From Dehalococcoidia bacterium (GTDB lineage: Bacteria > Chloroflexota > Dehalococcoidia > Plut-88900), in NCBI GenBank assembly GCA_965249275.1, contig CBDFLQ010000006.1, positions 1 through 64,000 of the forward strand: a stretch of DNA of 64,000 bases. The letters are read 5' to 3'. The notes under the pieces were generated by a model, which saw nothing but the letters and a program-made list of their open reading frames with translations, had not been told where the DNA came from and ran no database searches. The position numbers and the translations under genes are program-made. Each line of letters starts with the position of its first letter. The stretch's first letter is position 1. Below are positions 1 to 58,649 of the stretch, piece after piece.

Positions 1-887
1 CAACTGGTCAAGGCAGGGAAGCATCCCGTTTCCGCTTCGCCCAGGACTTCTACTCCTTCCACGGCACTAGCCGTCAGACCTTCGCCAAGTACTACAACCG
101 GTTCCTCCTCTCCCCCTCCGACAACGCCTTCCTCCCCCGTAAGCGGGGTCCCGGGTGGAAGTCCCGCCGCACCCTGCCCTACATTGAGCAGAAGGTCATC
201 AACGAGCGCCTTAACGGTACCAACCGTTACGAGATCTATGCCATACTCAAACCCATCCTTAAACACAACACCCCTAAGCCCTCCACCATCTACGCCATCA
301 CCAGACGCCACGGTTTCAATAGGCTCACAAAGCCGATGCAGCAGTCGAAGCGCAAGATCATCAAGACCCGGGCAGGAGAGCTGGGCCACCTGGACAGCCA
401 CTACCTCAGCCGGGATACCATCGTGGGCACTAAGCACCGCTACTACCTCGTGGCCCTCATCGACGCCTTCACCCGTCTGGCCTGGGCCGAAGTGGTTGGA
501 GACATCAAGAGTCTCTCCGTGATGTTGGCTACTCTGAAGTCCATCAATTTCCTTAACGTGGAGTACGGCATCCAATTCGAGGCTATCCTCACCGACAACG
601 GCCCCGAGATGGCCTCCCCAAGGAACACCCAGGGCCACCCTATGGAACGCATGCTCAATGAACTGGGCATAAAGCACCGCTACACCCGCCCTTATAGGCC
701 CCAGACCAACGGGAAGATAGAACGGTTCTGGAGAACCTTGAACGAGGACCTGCTGGAGGGGACAACCTTCGAGTCGGTCTCGGAACTGAAGGACGAGCTT
801 CAGCAATACCTGATCTACTACAATACTCAGAGACCCCACCAGGCAATGGACGGAAAGACCCCTTTGCAAACCCTTAAATCTCTCTAA
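1..887 (+). pseudogene. IS481-family DDE transposase, 5'-partial, apparent 1-bp deletion at about 25-27
   Basis: Integrase core motifs (HLDSH, LTDNGPEM, PYRPQTNGKIERFWRTL, YNTQRPHQ); GCATCCCGTTT here vs GCATCCCCGTTT in copy 2 shifts the frame (could be a sequencing error). Confidence 0.7.
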
Positions 888-916
888 TTCTGTCAACGAA
901 TTACCTGACATCTACA
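1..916 (+). mobile_element. IS481-family insertion sequence, copy 1 (left end outside window)
   Basis: Near-identical to the reverse complement of 56205-57121; right end TGTCAACGAATTACCTGACATCTACA (891-916) ends in ACA as IS481 ends do; flanked by GGAATGAC. Confidence 0.92.
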
Positions 917-1165
917 GGAATGACAGGGGGGCTGGGGTGGAGGCGGGGGTGAGGGCGATGTATTGGCAAAACTGGGCCTCCCCCCGCTCGACCCTTCGAT
1001 GCTCCAGAGGCGCACTTTCAGCATGCTCAGGATGAGCGGCCCCTCCCCAAGGATGGATTCACTCCTCGGCGCATCTTCGACCGGCTCTCGGCGGCCGGAA
1101 TCACGGGGGAGAAGGGGGTGGGTTCCTGCCTACGCAGAAACGACGAGGGGCAAGGGGGGTGGGGA
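917..1165 (-). repeat. Composite cluster of REP-like palindromic repeats, reverse orientation
   Basis: Half GTCATTCC repeat at 917-925; CCCTTCGA..GCTCAGGATGAGCGG at about 990-1040; GGATTC..GGAATCACG at about 1055-1105; GGTTCCTGCCTACGCAGAAACGAC at about 1121-1144. Confidence 0.7.
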
Positions 1166-1241
1166 ATAAGGTGTTGCACAACCATCACAAATACGACACG
1201 ATAGTGTTGCCTCATCAGCCCTCAACAAGAAGGAGCACATC

Positions 1242-2120
1242 ATGACCGAATACAACACTATCCTCTACGAGAAGCAGCGCAAGGGCGTCCTCATCACCCT
1301 CAACCGCCCCGAGACCCTGAACGCCATCTCGCAAGAGGTCGCGACCGAACTCAGTCATGCCCTCTACGCCGCCGACGCCGACCCCGAGGTCCGCGCAGTC
1401 GTAATCACCGGCTCGGGCCGGGCCTTTTCGTCGGGCTACGACATCGGAGCGGGACGCCCAATGGAATGGCCCTCGGGACTGCCAGAAGGCGCCAACATCG
1501 CCGAGCAGATTGAGTTTCAGCGGAACCATGACAAGCAGGAGCAGGCCAACCTCCTGCAGATTTGGGACATGGGAACGCCCGTCATCGCCGCAGTGAACGG
1601 CTGGTGTCTCGCTGGAGCCTCCTGGTACGCCCTCGCCTGTCATATGACCTTCGCCTCAGACCAGGCCGTCTTCGGTCAGCCCGAGGTCCGTATGGGCGAC
1701 GACACAAACTTTTTCTGGGTGCTCAACGCCGGGTACAAGCACGCCCTGCGTTACGCCCTCACCGGTGACCACATCGACGCCCATGAAGCCCTCCGCATCG
1801 GTCTGATCAACGAGGTCGTGCCCCACGATCAGCTTATCGACCGCTGCTTCTCCATCGTCGAGCGCATCGCCATGAACGCCCCCGAGACCGTGAAGATTAA
1901 CCTTCAGGTCGCCACCCAGGGCCTGAACATGATGGGCCTTCGCAACGCCCTCCTCCTCAACAACGAGATGAAGGCCCTCGCGCACCTCTCCCGCAGCCGA
2001 GACTTCTACCAGCCCCTGGACGACGCCCAGCGCCGCGGCGGCCTCCGCGAGTTCCTCAAGCTCCGCGACGGCCCCTTCATCCCCGAGCCCTTTGGCCCCA
2101 GGTCCAAGCCCCGGGAATAG
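1242..2120 (+). CDS. Enoyl-CoA hydratase/isomerase (crotonase) family protein
   Basis: ITLNRPETLNA, GRAFSSGYD, IAAVNGWCLAG, FGQPEV motifs; AGGAG RBS. Confidence 0.9.
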   Translation: MTEYNTILYEKQRKGVLITLNRPETLNAISQEVATELSHALYAADADPEVRAVVITGSGRAFSSGYDIGAGRPMEWPSGLPEGANIAEQIEFQRNHDKQEQANLLQIWDMGTPVIAAVNGWCLAGASWYALACHMTFASDQAVFGQPEVRMGDDTNFFWVLNAGYKHALRYALTGDHIDAHEALRIGLINEVVPHDQLIDRCFSIVERIAMNAPETVKINLQVATQGLNMMGLRNALLLNNEMKALAHLSRSRDFYQPLDDAQRRGGLREFLKLRDGPFIPEPFGPRSKPRE

Positions 2121-2144
2121 TTTCAAGGACCCAGGAGAATTCCC

Positions 2145-3440
2145 ATGAATGCCAGGACCGCCGACGCCGTAGTAATCGGGGCGGGGATAGCCGGTTGCGC
2201 CACCGCTTACTACCTCTCTAAAAAGGGCCTCAACGTAGTAGTCGTCGATAAAGGCCAGGTCGGGGACGAGCAGTCCAGCCGAGCCTGGGGTTTCGTGCGC
2301 CAACAGGCCCGTACCGCCCGCGAGCTGCCCCTGATGATTGCCGGGGCCACCGTATGGCAGGAGATGGAGCGCGAGCTTGGCGCCGACGTCGAATGGAACC
2401 AGGGTGGCTCACTCACCCTCGCGGGAGACGAGGAGATACTCGGCAGAATCCGAGCGTGGCTGAAGGTCGGCGAGCAGTTCGGCATCGAGACCCGGTTCCT
2501 GACCAACGACGATGTGAAAGAGCTCCTTCCAGCCATGCGTGGCGAGTGGCTCGGGGCCATGTACACCCCGAGCGACGGCCACGCCCAGCCCCACAAGGCA
2601 ACAAACGCGATTGCCATCGGCGCACGCGAGCACGGCGCCCTTTTCAGGACAATGGAGGCCGTCGAGGGCATCGAGGTGACCGACGGCCGGGTCTCCGCCG
2701 TAGTCACCGAAAGGGACCGTATCGTCACCCGGAACGTAGTCTGTGCAGCCGGGGCCTGGTCCCACAAAGTGTCCAGTATGGTCGGGCTTGCACTTCCTTA
2801 CCGGATGGTGCGGGCGAGCGTCGGCCAGACTAATCCTACAGATCACGTTACCGACATGGCGGTCATCGGGCCCCGGATCGCTTTCCGGCAGAGGCCCTCG
2901 GGCGAGTTCTATATCGCACCGGGTCCCGGGGGCACCGACTACGACGTCGACCTGGACAGCTTCAAACACATCCGTCTCTTCATGCCAAACTTCCGGCGGA
3001 ACCGGGAAATGTTCCGTGTCCACGTCGGGAGAACACTGATAAAGGACGTCCTGAGAAGCCTGCCCGGCTCCTCCTCCCGCCGACACCCCTTCGCCCACAC
3101 CGTCGGCGTCGAGCCGGAGCCTAACAGGAAGGTTATCGACAAGGCCCTGGTCACCTTCAAGTCCATGTTCCCCGATCTTCAGGACCTCAAGATTGAACAC
3201 TATTGGTCGGGTCGCATCGACGCTACCCCCGACGCCCTCCCCGTTATAGGCGAAGCCGACTCCCCAAAGGGTTTCTACTTCTGCACGGGGTTCAGCGGTC
3301 GGGGCATAGGCATCGGGCCGATCGCGGGCAAGGTCACTGCCGAGCTAATCGCCGACGGCAAGTCTTCCGTTGACATCCATGCCCTCCGGCACAGCCGATT
3401 CGAGGAAAAAGACATGGATATGATCAAGGCTGTGGTCTGA
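2145..3440 (+). CDS. FAD-dependent oxidoreductase, D-amino-acid oxidase/dehydrogenase family
   Basis: VIGAGIAG FAD motif, QSSRAWG, DATPDALPVIG, GFSGRGIGIGP. Confidence 0.9.
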   Translation: MNARTADAVVIGAGIAGCATAYYLSKKGLNVVVVDKGQVGDEQSSRAWGFVRQQARTARELPLMIAGATVWQEMERELGADVEWNQGGSLTLAGDEEILGRIRAWLKVGEQFGIETRFLTNDDVKELLPAMRGEWLGAMYTPSDGHAQPHKATNAIAIGAREHGALFRTMEAVEGIEVTDGRVSAVVTERDRIVTRNVVCAAGAWSHKVSSMVGLALPYRMVRASVGQTNPTDHVTDMAVIGPRIAFRQRPSGEFYIAPGPGGTDYDVDLDSFKHIRLFMPNFRRNREMFRVHVGRTLIKDVLRSLPGSSSRRHPFAHTVGVEPEPNRKVIDKALVTFKSMFPDLQDLKIEHYWSGRIDATPDALPVIGEADSPKGFYFCTGFSGRGIGIGPIAGKVTAELIADGKSSVDIHALRHSRFEEKDMDMIKAVV

Positions 3441-9194: not shown

Positions 9195-9233
9195 TGTCAT
9201 TCCGAGGCTCCGCGAGTAATCTAGGACTTGCCC
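9195..9233 (+). repeat. GTCATTCC..GGAATC palindromic repeat (family 1)
   Basis: TGTCATTCCGAGGCTCCGCGAGTAATCTAGGACTTGCCC, 1 mismatch to the 34754 copy. Confidence 0.85.
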
Positions 9234-18415: not shown

Positions 18416-18443
18416 CGTCATTCCAGCCCCCGCGAGGAATCTG
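18416..18443 (+). repeat. Family 1 palindromic repeat
   Basis: CGTCATTCCAGCCCCCGCGAGGAATCT. Confidence 0.75.
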
Positions 18444-32792: not shown

Positions 32793-33848
32793 CTATCGGA
32801 ACTGAGGCATGATGCTGTTGGAAATCTCCCGCATATTGCTCTTCTGGTCGATGATTGCATATTGGACGCATGAGACTCCGCTGATCCCTAGCTCGTGCAG
32901 GTCGTAAACTCTTTCGTCTATGTCCTCCAAGCGTCCCGTCAGGTTGATGGAGTCGATCACCCTCTGCGTCGCCAGGTATTTGTGTTCGGCATGCAAAGAC
33001 TCGTGCTCGTAGGGGTTGAAACCCTCGTGGATTTTCTTGTACTCATCCACCAGGCCGGGGCTCTTCCTTTCGAGCCTCTGGTACAGGTCCTGGGCCTCAG
33101 GTGTGTTGCGTTTGAAGATCACTTTGTACAGCTCGCTTGCACAAGACGCCGCATAAGAAGCTACCTCGTGTCTCGCCTCCTCCTTGGACCCTGTAACGTA
33201 AACCTCTGTACGAGCCCATGTCTTGATCTTGGAGAAGTCCCGGCCCGCCCGGTTGGCCCCCGTCTCGATCTGCTCCAGGTTCCACTTGATTAACTCCGGC
33301 TCCCCTGCTCCAAACATCATGATTTCATCGGCAACTTCGCCGGCAAGCTGCAAAGCTCGTGGCCCGAGGGGGCCCATGATCACGGGTATCGATTGTCCGT
33401 TGAACGGCGTGTTCCTGATCCATTCGGAGTGCCACGTCTGGCCCCACAGCTCCGCATCTCCTCCTGAGGTGTAGGACTTCAGAAAGTTTACCGTCTCTCG
33501 TTGCATCTTCAGGCTAACCGGCCCCCGAGTCGCCTTGCCGGCCTGCCTCGTCCCCGCCCCAAGACCAATGAACGCCCTTCCCCCGGTAAGCTCCCGCACA
33601 CTGGCCGTAAAGTTGGCAATGACTGCCGGGTGGTACATAAACGGGTCGCACACACCCTGCCCTATATGGATCCGGCGCGTGTTCATCGCCGCGATGGTCA
33701 TCATGCCGAAGCATTCTCTCGACACGTTGCTCTGATCGACGAATGTCAGGTGGCTGTATCCCGCCTCGTCGGCTACCCTTGAATGCTCCGCAATTTCATC
33801 GAATCGCAGCTCCGCCCCTAGCCCGATCCCAAAGTCCATCCTCGCCAT
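32793..33848 (-). CDS. LLM-class flavin/F420-dependent oxidoreductase, tandem copy B
   Basis: Same length (351 aa) and nearly the same sequence as copy A. Confidence 0.9.
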   Translation of the reverse strand: MARMDFGIGLGAELRFDEIAEHSRVADEAGYSHLTFVDQSNVSRECFGMMTIAAMNTRRIHIGQGVCDPFMYHPAVIANFTASVRELTGGRAFIGLGAGTRQAGKATRGPVSLKMQRETVNFLKSYTSGGDAELWGQTWHSEWIRNTPFNGQSIPVIMGPLGPRALQLAGEVADEIMMFGAGEPELIKWNLEQIETGANRAGRDFSKIKTWARTEVYVTGSKEEARHEVASYAASCASELYKVIFKRNTPEAQDLYQRLERKSPGLVDEYKKIHEGFNPYEHESLHAEHKYLATQRVIDSINLTGRLEDIDERVYDLHELGISGVSCVQYAIIDQKSNMREISNSIMPQFR

Positions 33849-33919
33849 TGCATCCCTCCTGGCTCATCCTGCTTACGGGCTCCTCGCTCCCCGAAAAATA
33901 TCCTTATGCCGCCGACCTG

Positions 33920-34306
33920 TCAAACTTCAGGATGTTCCCGCAAAGGCACGAATATCGAAATCCGGGCCTCGGGTCCCACCTCCCGCGTGTAGTGTCCCTC
34001 CCCTGCTACATCCTCGGCAATCAGAACGTCACCCGGGCCTATCACCCGCTTGTCCCCGTTCCCAACTTCTATCTCAACCGACCCGGTCAACGTGAAAACC
34101 GCAACCTGTCCCGGAGCGTGGTGCCACGGGTTGGACCGCTCCGGGTCGAACCGCTGCACTACTATCCCGCCATGTATGACCGCCCGGGCATCCTGCGGCC
34201 ATCCACTTTCCAATGCCTCAAGCTCCGGCTCGATATCCTCGAAGTGTGACCGGCCATCTTCCCCTTGGTACAATCGTACAATTGCCAAATTCTTCTCCTC
34301 ATTCAT
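33920..34306 (-). CDS. Cupin-like protein
   Basis: DGRSHFED, WHHAP, GPGDVLIAEDVAGEGH. Confidence 0.85.
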   Translation of the reverse strand: MNEEKNLAIVRLYQGEDGRSHFEDIEPELEALESGWPQDARAVIHGGIVVQRFDPERSNPWHHAPGQVAVFTLTGSVEIEVGNGDKRVIGPGDVLIAEDVAGEGHYTREVGPEARISIFVPLREHPEV

Positions 34307-34368
34307 ATTCGTGAAGCTGTCCTCTCTTACCCGTCATCCCCACCCCATCCGTAGTATCATACCCTCCC

Positions 34369-34716
34369 TTGAGATACCTAATCAGCTTCGACGTAGACGG
34401 CACATTGGAAGTCGGAGATCCGCCGGGACCCATCACCCTGGCCCTCGTAAAGCAGGCCAAGGCCCTTGGCCACGTCATCGGCAGTTGCTCCGACCGCACC
34501 CACTCAGACCAGGCCAACCTCTGGCGCACTCACGGCATCGAAGTCGAATTCACGTCCCTGAAGTACGAGCTTCCCGAGGTCCTCGCCCGCTTCCCCTCCG
34601 ACCGCGCAATCCATGTCGGAGATTCCCACGTGGACCGCATGTACGCAGAAAAAGCCGGTTTCACCTACCTCACCCCAGACCCCGACGCCGTCGCCGCACT
34701 CCTTACCCCGGAATAA
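34369..34716 (+). CDS. Small HAD-family hydrolase
   Basis: FDVDGTL motif I, HVGDS motif; TTG start. Confidence 0.82.
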   Translation: MRYLISFDVDGTLEVGDPPGPITLALVKQAKALGHVIGSCSDRTHSDQANLWRTHGIEVEFTSLKYELPEVLARFPSDRAIHVGDSHVDRMYAEKAGFTYLTPDPDAVAALLTPE

Positions 34717-34753: not shown

Positions 34754-34792
34754 TGTCATTCCGAGGCTCCGCGAGGAATCTAGGACTTGCCC
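34754..34792 (+). repeat. Family 1 palindromic repeat (consensus-like copy)
   Basis: TGTCATTCCGAGGCTCCGCGAGGAATCTAGGACTTGCCC. Confidence 0.85.
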
Positions 34793-38474: not shown

Positions 38475-38522
38475 TGTCATCCCGATTGTCGTGTCATCCC
38501 GAGGCCCCGCGAGGGATCTAAG
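38475..38522 (+). repeat. Family 1 repeat preceded by a partial copy
   Basis: TGTCATCCCGATTGTCG then TGTCATCCCGAGGCCCCGCGAGGGATCT. Confidence 0.75.
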
Positions 38523-38586
38523 GCGTCTGCCCACCACTCACCCTAACCGTACCCACTACTCATCCATTCAGGCGTGGGCCAAAACG

Positions 38587-46798: not shown

Positions 46799-46830
46799 TG
46801 TCATCCCGAGGCTCCGCGAGGGATCTAAAG
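46799..46830 (+). repeat. Family 1 palindromic repeat
   Basis: TGTCATCCCGAGGCTCCGCGAGGGATCTAAAG. Confidence 0.8.
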
Positions 46831-46916
46831 CGCTCGCCCAGAATCCACCCATCGTTACGCCCAACACGCGCCGCTCCCCTCTAGCCTCTCAGGCCCCAAC
46901 CCCTTATCATCCCACC

Positions 46917-56036: not shown

Positions 56037-56137
56037 GTCTGGACACGCGAGTCGCCGGGGGTTGTCTGCGACGTTCAACCATGACCCTGGTCCACACCCT
56101 CTCCCAACAAATCATCCCCCCTCCCTCCAACCAACCC

Positions 56138-56170
56138 TCTCATGCTGAGCAGCGCCGAAGGCTCGAGCGA
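56138..56170 (+). repeat. Degenerate family 2 repeat
   Basis: CATGCTGAGCAGCGCCGAAGGCTCGAGCG. Confidence 0.55.
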
Positions 56171-56204
56171 ATGCGCACTTCACCCCCCTCTCCCCCGTCA
56201 TTCC

Positions 56205-57260
56205 TGTAGATGTCAGGTAATTCGTTGACAGAATTAGAGAGATTTAAGGGTTTGCAAAGGGGTCTTTCCGTCCATTGCCTGGTGGGGTCTCTGAGTATTG
56301 TAGTAGATCAGGTATTGCTGAAGCTCGTCCTTCAGTTCCGAGACCGACTCGAAGGTTGTCCCCTCCAGCAGGTCCTCGTTCAAGGTTCTCCAGAACCGCT
56401 CTATCTTCCCGTTGGTCTGGGGCCTATAAGGGCGGGTGTAGCGGTGCTTTATGCCCAGCTCATTGAGCATCCGTTCCATGGGGTGGCCCTCGGTGTTCCT
56501 TGGGGAGGCCATCTCGGGGCCGTTGTCGGTGAGGATGGCCTCGAATTGGATGCCGTACTCCACGTTAAGGAAATTGATGGACTTCAGAGTAGCCAACATC
56601 ACGGAGAGACTCTTGATGTCTCCAACCACTTCGGCCCAGGCCAGACGGGTGAAGGCGTCGATGAGGGCCACGAGGTAGTAGCGGTGCTTAGTGCCCACGA
56701 TGGTATCCCGGCTGAGGTAGTGGCTGTCCAGGTGGCCCAGCTCTCCTGCCCGGGTCTTGATGATCTTGCGCTTCGACTGCTGCATCGGCTTTGTGAGCCT
56801 ATTGAAACCGTGGCGTCTGGTGATGGCGTAGATGGTGGAGGGCTTAGGGGTGTTGTGTTTAAGGATGGGTTTGAGTATGGCATAGATCTCGTAACGGTTG
56901 GTACCGTTAAGGCGCTCGTTGATGACCTTCTGCTCAATGTAGGGCAGGGTGCGGCGGGACTTCCACCCGGGACCCCGCTTACGGGGGAGGAAGGCGTTGT
57001 CGGAGGGGGAGAGGAGGAACCGGTTGTAGTACTTGGCGAAGGTCTGACGGCTAGTGCCGTGGAAGGAGTAGAAGTCCTGGGCGAAGCGGAAACGGGGATG
57101 CTTCCTTGCCTTGACCAGTTGATACTCATGGATGAGGAACCGCCACTTCTGAATGTAGTTCCGTTCAAGGGTGAGGTCCTTGCTATTGTCTCGCATTCTC
57201 GCCTCCAGATTGGTGTTGGCCTCTTATACCAATCTGTCAACGAATTACCTAACACTTACA
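56205..57260 (-). mobile_element. Complete IS481-family element (1056 bp) with 5-bp ATTCC target duplication
   Basis: Imperfect terminal IRs TGTAGATGTCAGGTAATTCGTTGACAGA / TGTAAGTGTTAGGTAATTCGTTGACAGA; ATTCC at 56200-56204 and 57261-57265. Confidence 0.95.
56234..57196 (-). CDS. IS481-family DDE transposase (intact, 320 aa)
   Basis: Integrase core motifs; GGAGG RBS; lies between the IRs. Confidence 0.93.
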   Translation of the reverse strand: MRDNSKDLTLERNYIQKWRFLIHEYQLVKARKHPRFRFAQDFYSFHGTSRQTFAKYYNRFLLSPSDNAFLPRKRGPGWKSRRTLPYIEQKVINERLNGTNRYEIYAILKPILKHNTPKPSTIYAITRRHGFNRLTKPMQQSKRKIIKTRAGELGHLDSHYLSRDTIVGTKHRYYLVALIDAFTRLAWAEVVGDIKSLSVMLATLKSINFLNVEYGIQFEAILTDNGPEMASPRNTEGHPMERMLNELGIKHRYTRPYRPQTNGKIERFWRTLNEDLLEGTTFESVSELKDELQQYLIYYNTQRPHQAMDGKTPLQTLKSL

Positions 57261-57340
57261 ATTCCGATGCCCCGCGAGGAATCTAGGACTTGTCCTCTCA
57301 CACCCTCCCTCGCCTTTCCTCCCTCTCCCCACTTGGTAGC

Positions 57341-57486
57341 GATATATCAGCCATGCTGCAGAGCAACATGGCTGATATATCAATAAAACAGGGCGGGTGG
57401 ACGGGACTCAACTTATCCCGGCGGGGTCGGGAGGGGCGTGTCCTACCCCCTCTCCCTCTGATGGGAGAGGGTTGGGGTGAGGGTGA
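57341..57486 (+). repeat. 15-bp-arm inverted repeat, family 5 motif and family 4 palindrome
   Basis: GATATATCAGCCATG-11 nt-CATGGCTGATATATC (57341-57381); CCCTCTCCCTCTGATGGGAGAGGGTTGGGGTGAGGG (from 57448). Confidence 0.75.
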
Positions 57487-57518
57487 TCCTCTTCCCCGGT
57501 AGGTGTGGCATAATCCCC

Positions 57519-57547
57519 TTGACCCGTGTGAACATCTGTGCTATATT
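57519..57547 (+). promoter_or_regulatory. sigma70 promoter with a LexA-type box abutting the -10
   Basis: TTGACC-17 bp-TATATT; GAAC-ATCT-GTGC at 57530-57541. Confidence 0.62.
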
Positions 57548-57607
57548 CACACCCAGGCCTGACACCCCACGTCGGCCCTAATCAAGGAATAGGACAAAAG
57601 GAGTCCC

Positions 57608-58441
57608 ATGAGTCGCACATGGCTAATCAGGCCCCGTCGTCACAGAGCGGTATCGGACCGCCCGGCCAACGACACGCGCCTCCTCCCCAATCCCTTTCCG
57701 CTCACAATCCCACCCTTCAACTCCCACTACAAGCGCTGCTCCAAGGCCGAACGCCTCCGCCTCCGCAGCGATCAATCAACGTCCCGTTCCCAGCACGGAA
57801 GGTTCCCGGACAAATCACGGCTTGCCCTTTCCAAGGGCCCCTGCCAAGTGCGCGCCCCACTCACCCGGCGCACCATCCTCGCCCCCTCAGGCGACGCCTC
57901 GGAGCACAGCGTCATGTCGCTCCCTCGGGCCATAGCGCCCCCTCCGGACTCCCCCGGCCTAGACCTTGCTGGCGAGTCCGAACAGTCGGACACCCTCCGA
58001 CTCAAAACAAACACACCATTTAAGGATTCCACCGTCGTCACCACCGGAGAACTCCCGACTACGAACGCCGGTCACGGGTCCTCGCTCCCATCCCTTAGGA
58101 TGGTCGGGCGCTTCTGGTGGTCGAGACTGCCCCACACCGAGATTACCTCGCGTCTCTTCCGCATCCTCTCAGAAGCACGGGGCTGTCGCAGAGTCGTCGT
58201 TGATGTGGAACATCCGCTGTGGCGGACAATACGCATCGGTGCAGGCGTCGCCGCCTTCTTGCGCAACCGTCCGGGACCTTCCATCCGCCACCCCTTCCTC
58301 CTCTCCCAACATTCCGGCCTGCTTACTCCGTCATTCCTGCGGAGGCAGAGCCTGCCCCTGCGGAGGCAGGAATCTATCCCCGGAGGCGGGGCCGGGGCGC
58401 TCCCCCCCCGTAGGGACGACCGGCTGGTCGCCCTGGGGTGA
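57608..58441 (+). pseudogene. Terminase-large-subunit-like fragment B (open 277-codon frame, diverged)
   Basis: AAGGAG RBS + ATG; GLDLAGESE..KDSTVVTTGEL..WWSRLPH..GCRRVVVD..IGAGVAAFL..GPSIRHPF; the 3' end runs into repeats. Confidence 0.55.
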
Positions 58442-58513
58442 GGCGCCCTCCCACCACCCACGAAAGGCCCCGTCTACTAGCGCACTCCCACGCCGGGAAA
58501 ACCCGGGTTTTCC
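58330..58513 (+). repeat. Repeat cluster: family 1 variant with internal 21-bp insert, GTAG REP, 18-bp palindrome
   Basis: GTCATTCCTGCGGAGGCAG-AGCCTGCCCCTGCGGAGGCAG-GAATCT; GTAGGGACGACCGGCTGGTCGCCCT; GGAAAACCCGGGTTTTCC (58496-58513). Confidence 0.75.
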
Positions 58514-58649
58514 GCAAAACAATCAAAAATCACGCCTGAGTCCGCGCATCAATCAAAACCCGCCACCCACGAAAGGAGCCGCCTAACCACCCCTCACCCC
58601 CATACGCTATAATGCCCCCCAACACCCCTCCCCACCGGAGAACCCGCCC

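Follow-up and report, generated by a model that had tools for sequence, protein, structure and literature searches.

Insertion sequences (ISs) that land in intergenic palindromes are already known from other IS families, mostly at repetitive extragenic palindromes (REPs) of the GTAG type. One survey (PMC1525189) names the IS3, IS110, IS4, IS256, and IS5 families as REP-targeting and does not mention IS481. A literature search, with ISfinder outside its scope, found no link between IS481 and REPs, dRS3, CGTC repeats, or Ssn-related motifs. Here, we analyzed a 64,000-nt stretch of DNA from a Dehalococcoidia bacterium (assembly GCA_965249275.1, contig CBDFLQ010000006.1, positions 1 to 64,000; hereafter the window) that carries two copies of an IS481-like element, which inserts at one fixed point of a short dispersed repeat, duplicates 5 bp, and is found at such repeats in both orientations. 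Relatives in other phyla follow the same rule, and only the GTC-flanked arm of the repeat is used. What is new is a divergent IS481-like subclade, spread across phyla and specific for the tag/stem junction of CGTC-tagged REPs. We consider it probable that the element is active or recently active, and that its transposase picks a word of the form YGTC-AT plus three bases at this junction.

The closest parallel among IS481 relatives is the ISAba32 subgroup of the IS1202 family, which has an IS481/IS3-related transposase, TGT ends, and a 5–6 bp duplication, and inserts at a fixed distance from an XerCD site recurring on many replicons, a setting for which a "safe haven" idea has been discussed (bioRxiv 10.1101/2022.12.17.520857). 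That subgroup targets a recombinase binding site in a fixed orientation, the left end towards the XerC arm, whereas the element described here enters a REP in both orientations. Nearest by profile are the Bordetella IS481 and its close relatives, with a DDE transposase encoded by a single open reading frame (ORF), TGT ends, and a short sequence-specific target. IS481 proper has a palindromic NCTAGN target and a 6-bp duplication; the present element, in contrast, has an asymmetric target of ~9 bp within a REP and a 5-bp duplication.

Two further groups resemble the element in the kind of target they use. The IS3-family elements IS1397 and ISKpn1, and ISPsy8, share an rve-type DDE transposase and specific insertion in dispersed intergenic palindromes (REPs and bacterial interspersed mosaic elements); however, they belong to another IS family and have two ORFs with a frameshift, whereas the element here has one ORF, uses the CGTC-tagged class of repeat, enters at the tag/stem junction, and duplicates 5 bp. 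REP-type targets, including dRS3, are also used by the IS110-family elements IS621, ISPpu9, ISPpu10, and ISPa11 and by PivNM-type recombinases (PMC1525189; PMC3733652; PMC11893778), but IS110-family enzymes are of the unrelated DEDD type, the elements are generally described as being without inverted repeats (PMC1525189), and their targeting proceeds via a bridge RNA (PMC11208160).

Element structure and the insertion rule

The complete copy in the window, copy 2, and the repeat that it interrupts comprise the following features:

56205–57260, minus strand: IS481-like insertion sequence, copy 2, complete, 1056 bp, recognized from the inverted repeats at both ends and from near-identical elements in Dehalococcoidia
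57233–57260, minus strand: left inverted repeat (IRL), 28 bp, upstream of the transposase start, begins TGT
56205–56232, plus strand: right inverted repeat (IRR), 28 bp, downstream of the transposase stop, begins TGT
56234–57196, minus strand: transposase, single ORF, 320 amino acids, with D157/D224/E266
56196–56199, plus strand: CGTC tag belonging to the repeat that copy 2 interrupts, immediately 5′ of the duplicated bases
56200–56204, plus strand: left ATTCC of the target-site duplication (the five bases that open the stem of the repeat), directly adjoining the IS
57261–57265, plus strand: target-site duplication ATTCC, right copy, directly adjoining the IS
57266–57295, plus strand: remainder of the interrupted repeat, comprising the loop, the 3′ arm GGAAT, and the tail

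The two inverted repeats agree at 25 of 28 positions, and the near-identical elements found in Dehalococcoidia genomes are 1046–1056 bp long. Removal of copy 2 together with one ATTCC rebuilds a 38-mer that has 3 mismatches to an empty repeat at 34755–34792, with no match among shuffled sequences, and 4 mismatches (counted by eye) to another at 9196. The first-pass annotation of this DNA, made from the letters alone, had arrived at the same reconstruction; the empty repeats that it cited at 9195 and 34754 are real, with each position given one base too low.

Among all NCBIfam models, the best match to the transposase was IS481 (NF033577; 186.5 bits, E = 7e-55), followed by IS3 at 86.5 bits, and the Pfam models rve_3 (6e-23) and rve also matched, so that the earlier assignment to IS481 holds in the sense of the nearest family. 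Residues D157, D224, and E266, which we take, from the motifs of IS3 and IS481, to be the catalytic (DDE) triad, are invariant in an alignment of the window protein with five relatives (56–75% identity; L063 was excluded owing to stop codons in the frame used). Residues 1–60 are strongly conserved across the clade, although a Pfam search with the first 150 residues gave no significant match (HTH_19 only, E = 0.03). A sequence search of the PDB returned weak matches only, to the IS21-type IS5376 transposase and to integrase cores, while a search for a named relative gave no IS names among proteins and, in a plasmid collection, matches of ≤31% identity labelled "IS481 family transposase". The element has a single-ORF rve-type DDE transposase without programmed frameshift and ends beginning TGT, the latter being given as an IS481 criterion (bioRxiv 10.1101/2022.12.17.520857). 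Target duplications in the IS481 family range from 2 to 15 bp and are mostly 6 bp (PMC10045372); the 5 bp seen here lies inside this range and off the usual length.

A transposase scan of genome contigs yielded 95 relatives, of which the best 80 were kept, representing 78 distinct loci; with the two window copies, this gave a set of 80 elements, each locus being taken as ~6–7 kb with the ends located by inverted repeats. A single Dehalococcoidia chromosome, OZ240215.1, to which the window flanks are 89–97% identical where alignable, contributed 27 loci (90–98% protein identity), and nine further Dehalococcoidia assemblies hold relatives at 68–93%. The other sources were a Coxiellaceae metagenome-assembled genome (MAG; 48–65%), a Nitrospinota MAG (65%), and Bradyrhizobium, Rhodopseudomonas, Parvibaculum, a Trinickia MAG, and uncultured Alphaproteobacteria (50–56% over full-length matches). 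Both ends were readable in 64 elements, 60 of which have a perfect 5-bp duplication, and one end in 15 (the GTC side in 10, the rest of the hairpin in 5); the last element (L057) has no flank and shows nothing.

Every one of the 60 elements whose duplication is intact has GTC directly 5′ of the duplicated 5-mer, and the base before GTC is a pyrimidine in 59 (C in 32, T in 27). The 5-mer begins AT in 58/60, being ATTCC in 41, ATTGC in 9, ATCCC in 3, and ATTCT and ATCCT in 2 each, with ATCAT, GTTGC, and GAAAC/GTTTC occurring once. The target consensus is thus YGTC followed by the duplicated 5-mer, and the same position of the repeat was used in 60/60. Which 5-mer is found depends on the lineage: ATTCC in Dehalococcoidia, ATTGC in Bradyrhizobium, Rhodopseudomonas, and other Alphaproteobacteria, and ATCCC or ATCCT in the Coxiellaceae MAG. 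The rule itself holds at 50–98% transposase identity, across Dehalococcoidia, the Coxiellaceae MAG, Bradyrhizobium, Rhodopseudomonas, Parvibaculum, and other Alphaproteobacteria, and the one visible flank in the Nitrospinota MAG agrees with it. Insertion at a fixed base of a dispersed intergenic repeat, as proposed in the first-pass annotation, is therefore borne out well beyond the two window copies.

Two side observations concern the elements themselves. In one Bradyrhizobium element (L067, NZ_CP120694.1), 2098 bp lie between the inverted repeats vs. 1050 bp, and the protein match covers residues 111–313 only; it probably carries a nested insertion. In three lineages, the inner part of the inverted repeat resembles the target word by eye, a likeness on which no claim rests.

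The second element of the window is cut by the window start:

1–916, plus strand: IS copy 1, incomplete, from the alignment with copy 2
917–924, minus strand: GTCATTCC, the duplicated 5-mer plus GTC, abutting the IRR of copy 1

Aligned over 916 positions, copies 1 and 2 show 7 substitutions and a gap of one base. Copy 1 has the same IRR, at 889–916, and its end abuts GGAATGAC at 917–924, i.e., the same 8-mer at a different locus, as first reported from the letters. A run at 25–27 has 3 C in copy 1 vs. 4 C in copy 2, which would shift the transposase frame; either a genuine inactivating mutation or an assembly error in the homopolymer could account for the missing C.

The first-pass annotation also held the orientation to be fixed, which is true of the two window copies and fails among their relatives. 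Counting the end that adjoins GTC gave IRL 24 times and IRR 34 times, palindromic flanks making 2 elements ambiguous (binomial p = 0.24), and both orientations were found inside single genomes. Near-identical ends, either of which would be able to join the GTC side, can explain this. The distal flanks of copies 1 and 2 differ, and among the 52 elements compared, drawn from Dehalococcoidia, Coxiellaceae, and the window, no two share both distal flanks; the insertions are hence independent and segmental duplication is excluded, in keeping with the earlier argument that the two window copies do not derive from one duplicated segment.

Between the window and OZ240215.1, orthology is clear for one site only, that of copy 1 (window 889–2735); it corresponds to L024:1–2964, with flanks ~92% identical over 1.8 kb, and is filled in both. 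The copy at L024 is in the opposite orientation to copy 1. Given most OZ240215.1 copies have a one-base IRR variant relative to both window copies, the two sets appear to stem from separate bursts, which suggests two independent insertions at this one site. Two other candidate orthologues were rejected: L015, considered as a filled/empty counterpart, has only its left flank in common with window 33500–34716, and L010, considered for copy 2, resembles that locus only in repeats and in an ABC transporter stretch of 66% identity.

The target repeat and its copies in the window

The targets are short intergenic stem-loops in which (C/T)GTC is followed by a stem starting AT, and the IS enters at the junction of tag and stem, duplicating the first five stem bases. 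We identify the target as a CGTC-tagged REP of the Neisseria dRS3/NTS (Ssn-related motif) kind; the first-pass annotation did not name the repeat family or see the same targeting in other phyla. As described by Di Nocera and colleagues (PMC3733652), such REPs carry a CGTC tag, often replaced by TGTC or CCTC, have stems that nearly always begin AT, and end in a short tail. Neisseria dRS3 is their family CGTC-1, and the class is known in Bradyrhizobium, Rhodopseudomonas palustris, and Coxiella, with no Chloroflexi listed in that 2013 survey, which states that CGTC REPs seem to be without a transposase of their own (PMC3733652). In a 2025 paper, dRS3 was broadened to the NTS (28 nt) and to Ssn-related motifs, which are degenerate and flank small GIY-YIG single-strand nucleases (PMC11893778).

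The targets surveyed here share the tag (GTC in 60/60) and the AT start (58/60) of this class. In those of OZ240224.1, the stems measure 8 bp and the loops 4 nt, and the tail starts CCA, as against the 8–9 bp, 4–5 nt, and CCA-like tail of CGTC REPs; several of these targets agree by eye with the NTS consensus printed in PMC11893778. With its stem of 5 bp, its ~12-nt loop, and its tail starting CTAGG, the window-type repeat is an atypical CGTC-REP variant. With regard to the "type 1 association" of REP-targeting elements (Tobes and Pareja 2006), the insertion position was the same in 60/60; the proportion of REP-associated copies fell short of the 100% of that definition, given an exact hairpin in 40/60, degenerate repeats at most of the others, and no recognizable repeat at the targets of L013 and L043.

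The 8-mer GTCATTCC occurs 8 times in the window, vs. 2.7 expected from shuffles. Six occurrences are unoccupied, comprising four clear hairpin repeats, one degenerate repeat (41880), and one site in a coding ORF (27070, minus strand). The empty repeats of the window include:

34755–34792, plus strand: empty repeat nearest to the 38-mer rebuilt from copy 2, with 3 mismatches
9196–9233, plus strand: empty repeat, one mismatch in the 3′ arm
18417–18441, plus strand: empty repeat, shorter variant
58330–58374, plus strand: empty repeat, long-loop variant
38493–38530, plus strand: empty GTCATCCC variant of the repeat, with ATCCC/GGGAT arms
46800–46837, plus strand: empty GTCATCCC variant of the repeat, with ATCCC/GGGAT arms

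With a few further degenerate variants present, the earlier count of about ten empty sites is roughly right, the number lying between 6 and 10 according to the degeneracy allowed. The window repeats lie between ordinary metabolic genes, i.e., in intergenic DNA, which agrees with the suggestion that they serve as "safe landing pads". As CGTC REPs are both many and intergenic, nearly all insertions would land in them and do little harm.

A second, unrelated IS family uses the same repeat as a target, at a different base. An IS110-family element of ~1.1 kb lies inside the same 38-bp repeat at L005:1477–2587, and also at L009 and L015, all in OZ240215.1; its 315-aa ORF matches the Pfam models DEDD_Tnp_IS110 and Transposase_20. 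Its insertion point is likewise fixed, after GGAATC and before the tail TAGGAC in the 3′ part of the repeat, whereas the IS481-like element inserts after GTC. L015 holds both an IS481-like and an IS110-family element in one repeat.

Small GIY-YIG genes stand directly beside targeted repeats at L005:2558–2902, L041:2567–2899, L064:2493–2777, and L025:3984–4220, with repeats on both sides at L064 and L025. They were found by tblastn with the L005 protein, and the Pfam check, which covered the L005 ORF only, gave a GIY-YIG match. This neighborhood agrees with the published repeat-ssnA-repeat layout (PMC11893778), the orthology to ssnA being putative. The same tblastn search gave no match in the window.

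Copy 2 itself sits in an unusually long intergenic stretch of 2.6 kb (56037–58649, IS included), bounded by genes for an ABC transporter and a luciferase-like monooxygenase and dense in short C-rich and G-rich hairpin modules beside the targeted repeat. At 57341–57381 lies a near-perfect palindrome of 41 nt with 19-nt arms, followed by a conserved AATAAAACAGGGCGGGTG stretch. This module recurs ~75 nt downstream of the repeat both in the window and in L010 (L010:4071), L037 (L037:174) has only part of its spacer, and L009 (L009:1493) carries it in the reverse sense; the palindrome and AATAAAACAGGGCGGGTG together are another dispersed intergenic module. A search of the whole window against Rfam at gathering thresholds gave no matches.

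Recognition of the target and competing explanations

If the transposase chooses its target by sequence, the steps may be pictured as follows. The DDE transposase would bind the two nearly identical IS ends and capture a target at YGTC-ATTCC, an asymmetric word made up of pyrimidine-GTC, AT, and three more bases, which are TCC in this lineage. Staggered cuts and joins 5 bp apart, directly after GTC, would then leave five stem bases duplicated, with either IS end joining on the GTC side. By analogy with IS3-type elements, movement may be of the copy-out-paste-in kind. The transposase itself appears to read double-stranded sequence, and its preference at positions 3–5 of the duplication seems to have shifted with the host's own repeat.

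Whether sequence or structure is read is the main question, and the first-pass annotation had left it as a "sequence- or hairpin-specific" transposase. An enzyme recognizing a hairpin or cruciform, or a single-stranded hairpin at the replication fork, with GTC-AT being the conserved base of that structure, would fit the 40/60 targets in which the duplicated 5-mer recurs exactly, in inverted form, within 45 nt (chance ~4% each) and the variation of the 5-mer with the stem of the host repeat (ATTCC, ATTGC, ATCCC). A hairpin, however, offers two equivalent arms, yet in all 40 exact hairpins the GTC-flanked arm was used and the other arm never (p = 1.8e-12), so that a hairpin plus the 5-mer does not suffice. 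Many targets also fold weakly: predicted DNA folding energies of the 60 40-nt targets run from 0 to −10.9 kcal/mol (median −4.35), with 21/60 weaker than −3 kcal/mol, and targets of the window type fold no better than their own shuffles. The targets of L013 (intergenic, full 8-mer) and L043 (5-mer ATCAT, coding-like by eye) have no partner arm at all. A count of GTCATTCC sites over the window and the OZ240215.1 flanks (185.6 kb) showed no difference in occupancy between those with an exact hairpin (15 occupied, 19 empty) and those without one (5 occupied, 10 empty; Fisher p = 0.54); as to avoidance of ATCCC-armed hairpins, the DNA examined contained 3 of them, too few for a comparison. Finally, both orientations occur, as expected of a DDE enzyme acting on duplex DNA and not of strand-specific hairpin-reading enzymes. 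As only the GTC-flanked arm is used and many targets fold weakly, direct sequence readout is likeliest; the data favor direct reading of a duplex word of ~9 bp over structure, and we regard hairpin recognition as unlikely.

Specificity could instead be borrowed, with a repeat-bound host protein, for which the GIY-YIG Ssn nuclease is the candidate, recruiting or guiding a transposase that has no such preference of its own. GIY-YIG genes do lie beside the targeted repeat in four loci (L005, L041, L064, and L025), and Ssn nucleases are reported to bind NTS-type hairpins in single-stranded DNA (PMC11893778). On our reading of the same source, though, the cut made by Ssn falls a few nucleotides 5′ of the motif, which is not the insertion point, and is confined to single-stranded DNA. 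The L005 protein has no tblastn counterpart in the window, and insertions also occur at non-repeat sites with the same 8-mer, such as L013, making recruitment quite improbable. Nor do we give much credence to random insertion followed by survivorship in harmless repeats, or to segmental duplication of the element with its flanks. The repeats are indeed intergenic, and L005, L009, and L015 have a one-sided flank of ~1 kb in common, but selection cannot yield single-base precision within a 38-bp repeat (60/60) or the use of one arm (40/40), no two of the 52 compared elements have both flanks in common, and the one-sided flank of these three loci is the separate IS110-family element. The loops of the interrupted repeats vary by site, and both orientations occur, leaving this explanation with a very small probability.

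Several points nevertheless weigh against an IS481-like transposase that reads YGTC-AT and three further bases directly. Its IS481 score of 186.5 bits lies below the curated cutoff of 224, and its identity to the nearest plasmid-borne transposases annotated as IS481 is only ~31%, which together mark the element as a divergent relative of IS481. The duplication is absent from four of the 64 elements with two readable ends (L004, with one flank replaced; L017, with one extra C; and L035 and L051, with both flanks of GTC type, as expected from recombination between two copies by inversion or deletion). The comparison of hairpin and non-hairpin occupancy is small (49 sites), draws on DNA next to IS copies, and is confounded, as sites outside repeats are often genic and selected against; moreover, several "non-hairpin" targets are degenerate or decayed repeats, which leaves room for a helping role of the hairpin. 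The lineage-dependent 5-mer fits a co-evolved preference and a reading of YGTC-AT alone, with the remaining bases coming from the repeat around it, equally well. Lastly, the evidence consists of surviving insertions, a sample shaped by selection.

Implications of the insertion specificity

An IS481-like DDE element that inserts with single-base precision at an asymmetric 9-bp word, three positions of which vary naturally, makes target choice experimentally accessible. It also provides a transposase partner for CGTC REPs, including the Neisseria dRS3/NTS and Ssn-related motifs, which were said in 2013 to have none. For annotators, the positions of these elements become predictable and split repeats can be recognized. 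As two unrelated IS families enter the 38-bp repeat at different bases, these repeats are rearrangement hotspots in Dehalococcoidia genomes.

More tentatively, and with some doubt, we raise the possibility that this IS481-like subclade, found over at least three or four phyla, is a dedicated lodger of CGTC REPs and Ssn-related repeats, which reads YGTC-AT and has had the three remaining positions retuned in each host. Were this so, it would be the first transposase family tied specifically to CGTC REPs, and its enzyme would be a compact, protein-only one inserting at a 9-bp site with evolvable specificity. The repeats, for their part, would be portable attachment sites, allowing the element to settle harmlessly in any genome that carries them.

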